DNA of 64,000 nucleotides from a virus (IMGVR_UViG_3300020047_016550:1-64000); one strand, 5' to 3'. Shown: positions 19,648 through 26,642, counted from the stretch's first letter. Program-made: numbers and translations. Notes: generated from the letters alone by a model not told the origin.

Positions 19648-19686
19648 CAAAATGCCCTACGGGGCTTTTTGTTTTTTCTAAAAAAA

Positions 19687-20163
19687 ATGAAAAACAGCGC
19701 AGAATACACCAATCCGGCCATAGTAGCCGAAATAGAGGTAGTTTACCGTTCAATGGTGAAAGCATCCGAAAGAAAACAGATAAAAAGCAGTTCAGACGCT
19801 GCCAAAATATTCCGTGAAGCATACCCGGACGGCCAAATTGAATACAGAGAATTATTTTATGCAATGTATTTAAGTAAAGCCAATAAAGTATTGGCAATAC
19901 AAAAAATAAGTGAAGGAGGTACTGCTTCAACTGTTGTTGACGTTAAAATGATAATGCAGAGTGCCCTTAAAACAAATTCACATAGAATAATTCTATGTCA
20001 TAATCATCCAAGCGGAGCTTTAAAACCAAGTGAAATGGACATAAAACTGACTAAAAAATTAATTCAAGCCGGTGTTATTTTAGAAATTGAAATAACGGAT
20101 CATATAATATTAACAGAAGAAGATTATTATTCTTTTGCTGATAACGGAATAATGAATGCATAA
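19687..20163 (+). CDS. radC: RadC-like JAB/MPN protein
   Basis: YRELFYAMYL, ISEGG, HNHPSG, PSEMD, DHIIL. JAB domain only. Confidence 0.92.
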   Translation: MKNSAEYTNPAIVAEIEVVYRSMVKASERKQIKSSSDAAKIFREAYPDGQIEYRELFYAMYLSKANKVLAIQKISEGGTASTVVDVKMIMQSALKTNSHRIILCHNHPSGALKPSEMDIKLTKKLIQAGVILEIEITDHIILTEEDYYSFADNGIMNA

Positions 20164-22606: not shown

Positions 22607-22647
22607 ATATAAAACCCCCGTTCGCGGGGTTTTATATTTTCTTAAAC

Positions 22648-22917
22648 ATGAAAAAAACTTATGACGTACTTTCTCCCGACGGTTTTCCCATTAACCCTGA
22701 AATGGATTATCCAAACATTAAAACCGCAATCAAAGAAACCAAAAAATTTGCCAAACGGTATATCGGTCAGGGATATTACTCTTCAAACAAGGGACGTATT
22801 CCCATTGATTACATACCAAGCGAATGTACCCTTGTTGAAAAAGACGTAAACGGCAAACAAGTTTCTATTCCTTTGTGCGATTATTTACCCGGACGTTTTA
22901 ACCAACCTTATTTCTAA
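22648..22917 (+). CDS. Small hypothetical protein
   Basis: 89 aa with cassette upstream. Confidence 0.6.
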   Translation: MKKTYDVLSPDGFPINPEMDYPNIKTAIKETKKFAKRYIGQGYYSSNKGRIPIDYIPSECTLVEKDVNGKQVSIPLCDYLPGRFNQPYF

Positions 22918-23513
22918 TGTATACGGAACTTACACAACATGTCAGGTATATGCCTGAAAGCAGTAGAAAACCATATTTTATTGCAAAAAATCAGGAAAAT
23001 TTTATTAAACTTGTTCCCGTATTCAAATCTGAAGAGAAATTTGACTTTGAAGAGTTTATTACTCCAAGACGGGTATTTTGGGCAGATAATGAAGAACTGG
23101 AAAATGTGGAAAAATTTTTTGAAAACGTAAATGCTGTCATACAATCACATCATCAAAGCATATTTTTGATTAAAAAAATGGCACTTGAAAAACTTATCCA
23201 AGAATCAGAAAAACAGGCCGCGGCCTTTTTTCTTTTAAAAAACAGAAAAATGAAAATAAAAAAAATCAGGCTGGAAAAAGCCTTAATCACGCCGCAACAA
23301 AAGATTTCCGTTTCAATGGAAGCTGAAATCGAACCGGGAGAAAATCACGGGGAATGTCTTTTAGAACTGGAACAAAAGATTAATGAGGCAATCGGAACCG
23401 AAGGAACCCTCGAACTTTATCCTTCCGGTGTTTCAAAAGTTACAAAGCCCCAAAAAGCAGAACCGGAAGAAACTCCCGTAATCGAAAACAACGAAGAAAA
23501 CGACGATTTTTAA
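22917..23513 (+). CDS. Hypothetical, probably two genes in one frame (second start 23250)
   Basis: Internal hairpin/U-tract cassette at 23211-23236 followed by in-frame ATG MKIKKIR. Confidence 0.5.
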   Translation: MYTELTQHVRYMPESSRKPYFIAKNQENFIKLVPVFKSEEKFDFEEFITPRRVFWADNEELENVEKFFENVNAVIQSHHQSIFLIKKMALEKLIQESEKQAAAFFLLKNRKMKIKKIRLEKALITPQQKISVSMEAEIEPGENHGECLLELEQKINEAIGTEGTLELYPSGVSKVTKPQKAEPEETPVIENNEENDDF

Positions 23514-23532: not shown

Positions 23533-24066
23533 ATGCTGGAAGCAATATTAAACGCATTGGGTGAAGGAAAAGACATCCAACTGAATTTCAAAAACAACAT
23601 GGTAATCATCGCCATGAAAGAAAATGATGAAGAAACATTTAATTCTCCCGTTATCGTAAAGAAACTGGATGAAAGTGTTATCGCTTCAACAATCGTGCAG
23701 TATGCAAAAATTCTTTCCACTGTTGAAGAACCGGATGTTACGGGCCTTGAAAATGTAAAATCGGTGAAAAAAGAACCTAAAGCTGCCGGAAAAACAAAAG
23801 CAAAAGCAAACGCTGAAGAAAAACCGGCTGAAAAAGAATCAGCTGAGGAAAAACCAGCCGATCCAAAATCAATCCAGGGCCCAAATCCTGAGTTGTTCAA
23901 ATTGCCGAGCGAAGAACGTATTGAAAAATACAAATCAGAAAGTTCCACAGCATCACAGGCTTCTCCCGGAGATGAATTTCCCGAGCCCGTAAATGAGCCG
24001 GTAAAAGAAGAAACGGCATCGGCCACTGACGTAGCATCTTATTTAGACGAAGAGGAGGATTTTTAA
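23533..24066 (+). CDS. PRTRC system protein E-like
   Basis: Short N-terminal beta domain plus long acidic/Pro-rich tail, in the canonical position before protein C. Confidence 0.55.
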   Translation: MLEAILNALGEGKDIQLNFKNNMVIIAMKENDEETFNSPVIVKKLDESVIASTIVQYAKILSTVEEPDVTGLENVKSVKKEPKAAGKTKAKANAEEKPAEKESAEEKPADPKSIQGPNPELFKLPSEERIEKYKSESSTASQASPGDEFPEPVNEPVKEETASATDVASYLDEEEDF

Positions 24067-24285
24067 ATGAATGAAGCACAAGTAATGGTGAGAGAGTTCT
24101 TGGTAAAGAACGGCACCAAAGAAACCGTTTTCCCGGATCCGGGAATAAAATTCACCGTCAATGAAGTGAAAAAAATGGCATCTTCCGTTTATCCGCCTGT
24201 TTTAACTTCGTCAATAGAAGGTCCTGTTTATGAAGGTGAAAAAGCAAAATATACTTTTGTATGTGGAGCGAAGACCAAAGGTTAA
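24067..24285 (+). CDS. PRTRC system protein C (ubiquitin-like)
   Basis: FPDP...EVKKMASSVYPPVLTSSIEGP...YTF...KTKG matches the pattern LxDP..SxxEV...S..YPELxxAxxxGP...YxF....GxKG; C-terminal Gly. Confidence 0.8.
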   Translation: MNEAQVMVREFLVKNGTKETVFPDPGIKFTVNEVKKMASSVYPPVLTSSIEGPVYEGEKAKYTFVCGAKTKG

Positions 24286-24319
24286 AAACTGTCGAACTTA
24301 AAAACAAGTATCTTAAAAA

Positions 24320-25336
24320 ATGGGGAAAATCAAAAAAAGAGACAAAAACCATCGAACAAATGGAAAATCTCAAATTCGATTTCTACAAAAATTCAAAAAC
24401 GATACCTGTTCCCACGGAATGTTTGAATGTAAAACTGTAATAACCGATTTAAAGCCCAGATTAAAACCCTGGGCTTTTTTTACGGTTGATTATAACGAAA
24501 GCGGAAATTATGAAACACACTGGGAGCAAGTTTTTGAAAATTTTGTTGAAGCTTTTTCCGGATATAAAAAGTTTGACATTATCAGCGAAAGTAATCTGGA
24601 CAAAAATCCTGAAGAAATGATTGATTTGATGGGCCAGAAACTGAATTTGGTTTCTTATGTCCATTATACCGATTTTTACGGAATTGCCAGTTTTGTTGAA
24701 AATATTGAGCTTAAATGGGTAAAAGTTTCATTAATAAACAGTCTTCCCGAAAAAGAAAAGATTCTTTTTAAATGTTTGTGTTATCTGCTTTACCATGTCT
24801 TTGACAAAGGGAACGATTCAGTTTATATTGATGAACTTTCAGAAATCATTACCGAAACGGAACAGTATTCAAAAAATGAATTTACGGTTGAGTTGTTTTC
24901 GGGTCATTCGAGAAACAGAAAAAACAGTCTGGCTTTGACAAAAAATGAAAGAAAGGCAAAAGAAATATATTCTTTCATCGAAAATGCTTCAATACATGAA
25001 GTAATCCAGATACTTGAAGAACAGTCTTACTCAAACACAAGAAATCTGCTTTTAAAAGCCGCAAAATGTTATTCACATACTGACGGTTATTCAATCTGTT
25101 GTGTTTCTGATTTAGGCACAGGTGAAATATTTCCTGTCGATCCGGTTGTTTTTTCATGGGATTTTGATGATTCTGATTTAAATTATGGATACATAGTAAC
25201 GGTAATTCCGCTTCATGAAAATGTACCTTTTCAAAGTCCGAAATACAAAAAAATAGAAAAACTGATTTATTTATCATTAAAACTTTTGACCGAATATGAG
25301 CGCTTTGAAACTCACGAATGCGTTACTGGTGTTTAA
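24320..25336 (+). CDS. PRTRC-associated helical protein (protein F position)
   Basis: 338 aa between C and B. Assignment by synteny. Confidence 0.45.
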   Translation: MGKIKKRDKNHRTNGKSQIRFLQKFKNDTCSHGMFECKTVITDLKPRLKPWAFFTVDYNESGNYETHWEQVFENFVEAFSGYKKFDIISESNLDKNPEEMIDLMGQKLNLVSYVHYTDFYGIASFVENIELKWVKVSLINSLPEKEKILFKCLCYLLYHVFDKGNDSVYIDELSEIITETEQYSKNEFTVELFSGHSRNRKNSLALTKNERKAKEIYSFIENASIHEVIQILEEQSYSNTRNLLLKAAKCYSHTDGYSICCVSDLGTGEIFPVDPVVFSWDFDDSDLNYGYIVTVIPLHENVPFQSPKYKKIEKLIYLSLKLLTEYERFETHECVTGV

Positions 25337-25892
25337 AACCGGCGACAATCATAATTATTACGAGCTGGCCACTTACCGGCAAATTTCGGAAACTTCTTAT
25401 GAAGAAACTGAAAGAAAACCTGTTACCCCCGATTTAATCAGGAAGTTGAATCTTTTTACCATTCCCGAAAAAGAAAAGTTTTCACTGAAAGGAAAGCTAA
25501 ACCGAAACGTCATAAAAATGGATGTTTCAAACCAGGGATATGAAATAACGTGGGAGCCCAAAAACTACAGTTCAACCGTAATTGTGGTAGGAGAACATTT
25601 TCCCGTGAAATGGCCTAAAATCATTTTTAAGGCCAATGTTGACAAATTATGGGTTTACGTATTAAAACAGGGAAAACTTATGTCAAATCCTTTCCCCAAT
25701 GTTTCCGGAGGTTCCCAGATGTGTTTTGGCAATATTGATAAAAAAAACTCATTCAGTGATTTTGAAGACTTTTTTGAAACATTTGAAAGTTATTTTTTCA
25801 ATACTTCATTTACGGATTCAAACGAATTTCTGGAAAGTTGTATCAATTTAAAACCGAATTTAACATTACTGAAAAACCATGCATCTGATTAA
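25296..25892 (+). CDS. PRTRC system protein B / prokaryotic E2 family D
   Basis: WPKIIF, PFPNVSGGSQMCFGN, FFNTSFT motifs. Confidence 0.8.
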   Translation: MSALKLTNALLVFKTGDNHNYYELATYRQISETSYEETERKPVTPDLIRKLNLFTIPEKEKFSLKGKLNRNVIKMDVSNQGYEITWEPKNYSSTVIVVGEHFPVKWPKIIFKANVDKLWVYVLKQGKLMSNPFPNVSGGSQMCFGNIDKKNSFSDFEDFFETFESYFFNTSFTDSNEFLESCINLKPNLTLLKNHASD

Positions 25893-26613
25893 TCATTTTA
25901 TCCAAAAAGAAGGAAACCAGGATCCGGTAACAATTGCGGTAATAGGCGCCGGCGGAAACGGCTCACATTTTCTTTATTCACTGGCGGCATTACAGAATGT
26001 TCTTTACCAAATCCGGGGCCAGGAATTGGCCGTAATGGTATATGATGATGACCTGGTTGAAAAACACAATTGCGGAAGGCAGTTGTTTTTCGAACAGGAA
26101 ATAGGAATGTCAAAATCAAGAGCCATAATCCAGAGAATAAACAGAAGCTATGGCTATTCATGGGAATTTCGTGAACAAAAGATGAAATCGTGCCCATCGG
26201 CAAACATTGTCGTTACTTGTACCGATAACATTGCTTCGCGAAAAATCATAGAAAAAGCACGTTCCAAAACACATCAGCACAGATACCATAACCATTATTC
26301 CAATTTGTATTGGCTGGATATGGGTAATGACCGAAATTCAGGAAACGTGATTTTGTCAACTTTTGTAAAATCCGGTAATAATTCACTTAAAAGCGTATTT
26401 GAAATTTTCCCGGAATTGATGAAAAAAAAAGAAGACAATAAACCTTCATGCGGAATGCTGGAATCTTTAATGCAGCAAGATGTTTTTATCAATAAAATAA
26501 TTGCGACACTGGCCGCAAAAATGTTGAAAACGCTGTTTTTGGATTCTACAACAAACCACCATGGAATATTTGTTGACATAGAAAATCCTTCAATGACAGA
26601 AATACCCTGCTGA
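25879..26613 (+). CDS. PRTRC ThiF-family E1-like enzyme
   Basis: VIGAGGNGS, DDDLVEKHNCGRQLF, TCTDNIASR, YWLDMGND, PSCG and QDVFIN. Confidence 0.92.
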   Translation: MHLINHFIQKEGNQDPVTIAVIGAGGNGSHFLYSLAALQNVLYQIRGQELAVMVYDDDLVEKHNCGRQLFFEQEIGMSKSRAIIQRINRSYGYSWEFREQKMKSCPSANIVVTCTDNIASRKIIEKARSKTHQHRYHNHYSNLYWLDMGNDRNSGNVILSTFVKSGNNSLKSVFEIFPELMKKKEDNKPSCGMLESLMQQDVFINKIIATLAAKMLKTLFLDSTTNHHGIFVDIENPSMTEIPC

Positions 26614-26642
26614 CGCGGGGTTTTTCTTTTATGTAAAATTTT

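Follow-up and report, generated by a model that had tools for sequence, protein, structure and literature searches.

A PRTRC-type cassette in a phage genome

The DNA analysed here (IMGVR_UViG_3300020047_016550:1-64000, hereafter “the window”) covers the first 64 kb (64,000 nucleotides [nt]) of an IMG/VR virus record that is complete at 73,391 bp and has direct terminal repeats. Between positions 23,533 and 26,613 it carries a five-gene cassette of the PRTRC type, including a ubiquitin-like protein (Ubl; protein C), an E2-type conjugating enzyme (protein B) and a ThiF-type E1 activating enzyme. On balance we think it probable, though not strongly so, that the cassette is an active, minimal conjugation module of the Bacteroidota form of PRTRC (the core of operon type 6d), without a JAB protein and without ParB, in the early or replication region of a non-integrating phage. 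An earlier note, made from the sequence alone, had described five coupled genes in the order E-C-x-B-ThiF and assigned them to PRTRC. Open reading frame (ORF) calls confirmed the genes, their order and their coordinates, and a check against hidden Markov models (HMMs) from the PRTRC TIGRFAM and Pfam families matched C, B and ThiF, bearing out the PRTRC-type identity of the Ubl, E2 and E1. The finding is a modest one: a cassette with prior annotations in phages turns up in a new host lineage, and the kind of system itself is known. The genes, with product lengths in amino acids (aa), are as follows.

23533-24066, plus strand: E-position gene (177 aa), directly upstream of the Ubl gene
24067-24285, plus strand: Ubl gene (PRTRC protein C, 72 aa), matched by the Prok_Ub HMM
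24320-25336, plus strand: F-position gene (338 aa), filling the gap from C to B
25296-25892, plus strand: E2 gene (PRTRC protein B, 198 aa), matched by the Prok-E2_D HMM
25879-26613, plus strand: E1 gene (PRTRC ThiF family, 244 aa), matched by TIGR03736

In these ORF calls the E-position gene and C are directly adjacent, the F-position gene overlaps B by 41 nt and B overlaps ThiF by 14 nt. The resulting order (177 aa, C of 72 aa, 338 aa, B of 198 aa, ThiF of 244 aa) is the PRTRC layout E-C-F-B-(A)-ThiF with protein A missing. GC content of the cassette region (0.345-0.357; neighbouring bins up to 0.372) was like that of its surroundings, in agreement with the native-looking composition noted earlier.

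Conserved features of the E1, the ubiquitin-like protein and the E2

A survey of PRTRC ThiF rested on one peptide pattern and covered IMG/VR and the GTDB species-representative genomes. PRTRC ThiF was found in at least 114 IMG/VR virus contigs, and matching contigs from the GTDB set numbered at least 589. Viral counts and local profiles given below cover 79 IMG/VR loci (L005-L083), Bacteroidota genome counts cover the best 80 of the at least 589 matches (L125-L204), and domain searches of virus records (JAB, ParB) cover 50 PRTRC-bearing records.

The ThiF protein scored well above the cut-off of its family model (TIGR03736: 195.8 bits vs. cut-off 144.75, E = 7e-58) and matched the local viral profile at 8e-84. 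All motifs that had been pointed out in the earlier note (GxGGxG, NCGRQ and PSC in the E1, KTKG in the Ubl, MCFGN in the E2) are present. In the E1, GxGGxG spans G23-G28 (25945-25962), NCGRQ occupies residues 64-68, and PSC includes C191 (codon 26449-26451), the candidate thioester residue. All 22 invariant columns of an alignment of 23 homologues (A1) are kept (22/22), among them D56, D58, N64, G66, R67, Q68, K79, D116, R121, D147, P189 and C191. Solved structures nearest to the family E1 profile were the eukaryotic E1 adenylation domains UBA6, UBA3 and UBA1 (∼1e-10); the profile lies closer to these eukaryotic enzymes than to ThiF or MoeB, and the window E1 matched ThiF and MoeB models weakly. 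Its closest homologue was a Logan protein (P0002, from a contig of 10,906 bp) with 58% identity, and identity to ThiF of the Bacteroidota and IMG/VR loci was at most 41%. A single-protein locus scan of IMG/VR with ThiF found no close relatives.

The Ubl was matched by Prok_Ub (PF14454; 42.3 bits vs. a gathering threshold [GA] of 25, 6.7e-11) and by the local viral profile (7.5e-21), and fell 0.5 bit short of its TIGRFAM cut-off (TIGR03738: 45.4 bits vs. 45.95). Its C terminus reads ...KTKG, with a stop codon immediately after the Gly72 codon (24280-24282). This ending is the rule: ...KG followed by a stop was found in 74/75 C-family ORFs (viral loci plus the window) and in 65/65 genomic Ubl genes, with G(T/V)KG throughout the 62 Bacteroidota loci of E-C-F-B-ThiF layout. 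The Ubl of Ralstonia phage Dina, the sole one beside a JAB gene, carries a 65-aa extension past the beta-grasp domain. The survey thus yields a simple rule, in which JAB-less cassettes encode a Ubl already ending at Gly and the JAB-bearing one (Dina) encodes an extended precursor.

The E2 was matched by Prok-E2_D (PF14460; 40.5 bits vs. GA 25, 3e-10) and by the local viral profile (4e-37), and its score against TIGR03737 (31 bits) fell far short of the cut-off of 131. It carries MCFGN and keeps P107, N135, C143 and G145, which are invariant in 79 sequences; the codon of the catalytic Cys143 lies at 25722-25724. A His C-terminal to this Cys is described as “absolutely conserved” in operon type 6d (Iyer, Burroughs and Aravind 2006, PMC1779556). 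The earlier note had read this residue as Asp in the window, and rightly so: D174 (codon 25815-25817) stands in a column that is His in 72/79 viral E2s, with S, S, Q, E, N and A in the other six. Because 7/79 viral E2s have other residues there, the position appears from the alignment to be tolerant. The six other E2s without His come from loci L005, L031, L042, L053, L057 and L070 (Q, E, N, S, S and A among them), of which L005 and L031 sit in the ThiF subclade of the window. By sequence, the E2 matched PDB entries at chance level only, and a word-indexed homologue search returned only the E2 itself.

The phage and its relatives

PHROG matches in the window included a portal protein, a large terminase, a virion structural protein, a DnaB-like helicase and a superfamily 2 (SF2)-type DNA helicase. 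Three giant ORFs (1555-2424 aa) are also present in the window. Terminase matches among 50,697 phage records were to Crassvirales only, at ∼28% identity over the N-terminal 40% of the protein (E = 1e-9 or weaker). Judged on its terminase, the phage is probably a distant relative of crAss-like phages; the earlier label of “crAss-like” has distant support only. A single-protein locus scan of IMG/VR with the terminase found no close relatives, and a terminase-profile search gave 32 related contigs. Two PRTRC-bearing IMG/VR phages are related to the window by their terminases (36-37% identity): G021, a fragment of 40 kb, and G033, which measures 80.5 kb and has terminal repeats. Both carry a canonical PRTRC cassette in the corresponding position, upstream of this SF2 helicase (38-39% identity). 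The cassette and its locus are shared by part of the phage lineage. The window ThiF and the Logan protein grouped, in a quick tree, with ThiF of G021 and G033 with modest support (Shimodaira-Hasegawa-like approximate likelihood ratio test [SH-aLRT] 84).

Among complete terminase relatives, the cassette was found in 1/5 (G033), and it was also found in one half-complete fragment. Three relatives (G052, G060 and G064) have the same helicase without the cassette upstream, and several genes of the G033 neighbourhood recur there. The cassette thus has the look of an accessory that this phage lineage acquired long ago but can do without. The earlier note had held that the cassette would lose its novelty if it proved common in related phages; with one of five complete relatives and one fragment carrying it, that novelty is reduced in part. 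Identity between G021 and G033 is graded, from 65% for the helicase through ThiF (50%), C (44%), B (40%) and E (35%) to F (26%), and the window helicase is 42-43% identical to the G021 and G033 helicases. Given this graded divergence and the distance of the window helicase, it is plausible that E and F of the window are no longer recognisable.

Neither ParB_N (E up to 0.1) nor a tyrosine integrase or serine recombinase was found in the whole 73,391-bp genome, which extends to the complete record the earlier remark that the window holds no parB or integrase. Protein A (TIGR03735, DUF2016 plus JAB) was likewise not matched anywhere in the genome, whose single JAB domain is that of RadC (19669-20163). 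The idea that RadC takes the place of protein A was considered but rejected, since PRTRC-less relatives keep RadC too and RadC-type JAB domains are thought to be unable to accommodate a ubiquitin tail (PMC5512222). A RadC gene upstream of the helicase also occurs in G033 (L056:459-923) and in the PRTRC-less G060 (L122:3613-4071) and G064 (L123:2003-2656), with 40-42% identity. Being present in PRTRC-bearing and PRTRC-less relatives alike, RadC is not tied to the cassette.

The E- and F-position genes

The earlier note had labelled the first and third genes of the cassette as E and F-like. Position and size agree with these labels; homology was not detected by HMM, profile-profile or shuffle comparison. 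The 177-aa and 338-aa ORFs are therefore treated here as putative positional analogues of PRTRC E and F, with homology unproven.

The slot directly upstream of the Ubl gene is the E position in 62/80 Bacteroidota loci and in most viral loci. The protein encoded there in the window has a small N-terminal domain, a low-complexity middle rich in Lys, Glu and Ala, and an acidic C terminus ending in EEEDF, and canonical E is built alike, with a small N-terminal domain, an acidic tail and charged low-complexity sequence between them. In the ESM Atlas, the clusters nearest to the E-position protein were PRTRC_E (score 0.79), which we take as a lead only. The protein showed no similarity by BLAST, no match in Pfam, NCBIfam (TIGR03741/PF19556, E up to 0.1), PHROG or PADLOC, no similarity to E of phage Dina, and no match to local E HMMs built for the full length or for the N-terminal domain only, with filters off. 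Smith-Waterman comparison with 300 shuffles against E of the two relatives, G021 and G033, gave z < 2; in such shuffle tests the relatives' own E proteins match each other with z = 19 and their own F proteins with z = 28.

The gap from C to B, into which the F-position gene fits, measures 1010 nt in the window and 0.93-1.3 kb in nearly all loci. In operon type 6d, a fast-diverging helical protein is encoded between the Ubl and E2 genes (Iyer 2006, PMC1779556), and canonical F members are mutually only 8-17% identical. The F-position protein had no match in Pfam, NCBIfam (TIGR03742/PF14456 alpha-hel2), PHROG or PADLOC, no similarity to F of phage Dina, and no match to local F profiles with all filters off; its alignment to the F family with hhalign reached a probability of 7.6%, and the 300-shuffle test against F of the relatives gave z below 0. 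A word-indexed search returned only the protein itself, ESM Atlas gave no usable match, and an AlphaFold model of the protein alone had a predicted local distance difference test (pLDDT) score of 34. An HMMER scan of 1.84 billion representatives found a single homologue, P0042, with 28% identity, whose source is a Logan contig of 10,906 bp, as for the 58%-identical ThiF P0002. One Logan contig thus appears to carry both proteins. Since this homologue seems to travel with ThiF on a second contig, the odd F-position gene is suggested to be a maintained gene. Similarity to P0042 starts at residue 26, which favours the start at 24320 over an alternative gene call:

24419, plus strand: alternative start of the F-position gene (305 aa)

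For canonical F, a model of the G033 protein (L056:8204-9304) built from 53 sequences reached a pLDDT of 79 and a predicted template modelling score (pTM) of 0.79, and is mainly helical with a small sheet. Compared with solved structures, it gave Foldseek matches (PDB) with E above 0.6 only and VIA-align Z < 5, and the modelled fold offered no clue to function.

Both relatives have, in addition, a small acidic ORF between the Ubl and F genes (L037:8057-8230, 57 aa; L056:8028-8207, 59 aa); the two have in common a QPVSF motif and acidic C termini. A 59-aa ORF in the window (24261-24440) was considered as a counterpart and rejected, being basic and without similarity.

Borders of the cassette

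The cassette is closed by a terminator-like hairpin and preceded by two ORFs.

26604-26621, plus strand: intrinsic terminator-like hairpin (26604-26631 including the T-tract), which closes the cassette and overlaps the ThiF stop codon
22648-22917, plus strand: upstream ORF (89 aa)
22917-23513, plus strand: upstream ORF (198 aa)

The hairpin has a stem of 7 pairs (5 GC), a loop of 4 nt and a T-rich tail. The nearest plus-strand terminator-like site 5′ of the cassette lies at 22616-22629, and none was found on that strand between 22629 and 26604; the two upstream ORFs, which fill 22648-23513, may therefore be co-transcribed with the cassette. Neither had a family match in Pfam, NCBIfam, PHROG or PADLOC. 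The 198-aa product has an acidic tail (...NEENDDF) that resembles the tail of the E-position protein (...LDEEEDF), and this common feature could mark a shared binding partner.

Distribution of PRTRC cassettes

The best 80 genome matches were all from Bacteroidota, save one contig binned as Micrarchaeota, and this dominance fits a Bacteroidota host for the phage. The exception, a 3.3-kb contig binned as Candidatus Micrarchaeota (L156, CAZLMI010000127.1), has a Bacteroidota-like PRTRC ThiF and is probably a binning error, not an archaeal cassette. The order E-C-F-B-ThiF was found in 62/80 Bacteroidota genome loci and was the main layout among the 79 IMG/VR loci. Homologues of protein A were found in none of the 80 Bacteroidota genome loci, and Prok-JAB in 0/50 PRTRC-bearing virus records. 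The JAB-less E-C-F-B-ThiF arrangement is thus the standard Bacteroidota form and not peculiar to the window. ParB_N was found in 21/50 other viral PRTRC records and in neither G021 nor G033. What is unusual about the window is the combination of no ParB, no integrase and no JAB (bar RadC) with an Asp in the E2, the shortest E2 tail, and E and F that cannot be recognised.

The statement in the earlier note that PRTRC cassettes are known mainly from plasmids and integrative and conjugative elements understates their range, which takes in at least 114 IMG/VR contigs, phage Dina, Burkholderia and Phocaeicola prophages, and the two terminase relatives described above. A BLASTN search of INPHARED with the cassette found nothing, and we found no literature linking PRTRC to crAss-like phages. 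Separately, the cultured Crassvirales phage Kolpuevirus sp. ‘frurule’ (OQ198718, L002:4343-6642) has, side by side in its replication module, a Prok-JAB gene (426 aa, 25.1 bits) and a gene for a ThiF/E1-like protein (338 aa, 9e-20). Neither a Ubl nor an E2 could be recognised in the vicinity, and this ubiquitin-related pair is distinct from PRTRC.

Proposed function and alternative explanations

From the protein families involved, the ThiF-type E1 would adenylate the free C-terminal Gly72 of the Ubl, which would need no processing because the gene ends at that residue. The Ubl would then be loaded as a thioester on Cys191 of the E1 and handed on to Cys143 of the E2, which would join it to lysine residues of its target or targets. 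Adaptors or substrates are the most likely roles of the two flanking proteins, which evolve fast; the E-position protein is Lys-rich and disordered. Because the cassette encodes no deubiquitinase, the mark would be one-way. As targets, we favour factors for the establishment or replication of the DNA that enters the cell, or host proteins encountered at an early stage of infection. A preprint on a Phocaeicola vulgatus prophage (bioRxiv 10.64898/2026.10.01.756045) reports PRTRC protein B as a hotspot of recurrent mutation, which fits an E2 in a conflict-type interaction. A bolder proposal, which we advance tentatively and regard as rather unlikely, is that non-integrating phages related to crAss-like phages use a one-way Ubl module, lacking both deubiquitinase and ParB, in early infection, with fast-evolving E- and F-position proteins and a variable E2 surface directing the irreversible tagging of host proteins or of their own replication or injected proteins; this would be the first Ubl “writer” used by phages and not directed at them.

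Several points weigh against an active module. B, C, E and F all fall short of the curated cut-offs of their TIGRFAM models. The window E2 is without the conserved His (Asp174 stands there), and its tail past that column, at 24 residues against a median of 42, is the shortest of 79; given both features, the E2 could be impaired. E and F of the window show no detectable similarity even to E and F of the related phages, and the two genes may be unrelated replacements. The cassette is dispensable, being absent from 4/5 complete relatives. Finally, no PRTRC system has been biochemically tested, and according to PMC13366799 its function had yet to be studied. The same features would suit a decaying or partly inactive remnant, in which the E1 and Ubl survive, the E2, E and F have drifted, and productive conjugation no longer takes place: D174 in place of His, the short E2 tail, the TIGR03737 score of 31 bits vs. 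131, unrecognisable E and F, and loss from most complete relatives all point that way. However, the five ORFs are intact and tightly coupled, every invariant residue of the E1 and E2 is kept, six other viral E2s are without the His, and the F-position homologue seems to travel with ThiF elsewhere. We consider decay unlikely, though a serious rival in view of the E2 changes.

PRTRC is by standard annotation a partition or maintenance module, and it was read in this way for Burkholderia gladioli prophage AB2 (PMC13366799, 2026); ParB_N in 21 of the 50 viral PRTRC records would agree with such a role in a plasmid-like prophage state. The phage studied here, however, has a complete genome with direct terminal repeats and without ParB, tyrosine integrase or serine recombinase, and G021 and G033 are without ParB as well. 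With ParB and integrase both missing, a role in partition alone is disfavoured, and a maintenance module seems improbable to us. The earlier note had proposed interference with host defences based on Ubl conjugation, namely Bil and the cyclic oligonucleotide-based antiphage signalling system (CBASS). On this reading, the cassette would compete for or mis-tag components of Bil or of CBASS Cap2/Cap3. Its position as an accessory in the early region, patchy among relatives, its fast-evolving partners and the mutational hotspot in the E2 of another phage would all be in keeping with counter-defence. However, PADLOC models of Bil and CBASS gave weak, partial matches to the E1 Rossmann fold only (E = 6e-6 or weaker) and none to the Ubl, the E2 or the flanking proteins; this similarity is generic to E1s, and a deubiquitinase, which would be the most direct antagonist, is missing from the cassette. 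The wide occurrence of the cassette in Bacteroidota chromosomes and mobile elements also speaks for a more general role. Nothing found here ties the cassette to Bil or CBASS, and we regard counter-defence as quite improbable. Least probable, and in our view very much so, is that the E1 and Ubl are a sulfur-carrier pair like ThiS-ThiF or MoaD-MoeB, serving cofactor synthesis or nucleoside thiolation. Weak ThiF/MoeB model matches and a small beta-grasp protein ending in Gly recall such pairs, but an E2 with invariant Cys and Asn is always in the cassette, the E1 profile is nearer to eukaryotic E1s, and there are no rhodanese, sulfurtransferase, thiamin or molybdopterin genes nearby.

Comparison with known systems

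With PRTRC as defined (NCBIfam TIGR03734-TIGR03742; operon type 6d, PMC1779556), the window shares a Ubl ending in Gly, an E2 of the Prok-E2_D family, a ThiF-type E1 and the gene order E-C-F-B-ThiF. It differs from the type in having no JAB protein A and no ParB, in its unrecognisable E and F, and in the Asp that replaces His in the E2. The likeness is closer to the five-gene core of Bacteroidota (L125-L204; IMG/VR loci L005-L083), which has the same JAB-less E-C-F-B-ThiF order, the same ...KG end of the Ubl and a gap of ∼1.0-1.3 kb between C and B, and which includes the nearest ThiF relatives of the window, all of them from Bacteroidota. In contrast to that core, E, F and the E2 of the window are the most diverged, and the carrier is a non-integrating phage that is apparently related to crAss-like phages. 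Ralstonia phage Dina (NC_055026, gp02-gp07) provides a RefSeq precedent for phage-borne PRTRC, in the order E-C-F-B...ThiF. Unlike the window, however, Dina has an extended Ubl, which implies processing, and its B and ThiF genes are separated by that of protein A (DUF2016 plus Prok-JAB).

The scheme predicted here, in which an E1 adenylates the Ubl, Cys thioesters relay it by way of an E2 and its C-terminal Gly is joined to the target, is also that of the operons for which bacterial Ubl conjugation has been demonstrated so far, namely CBASS Cap2, Bub and both types of Bil (I and II) (bioRxiv 10.1101/2024.11.21.623966). These differ from the window in using other E2 and Ubl families, in having a dedicated deubiquitinase, and in forming host defence operons, where the cassette of the window belongs to a phage. 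PRTRC is among the most widespread of bacterial ubiquitin-like gene sets, and the copy in the window represents it at its minimum, as a compact construct of five genes beside the replication genes of a phage.

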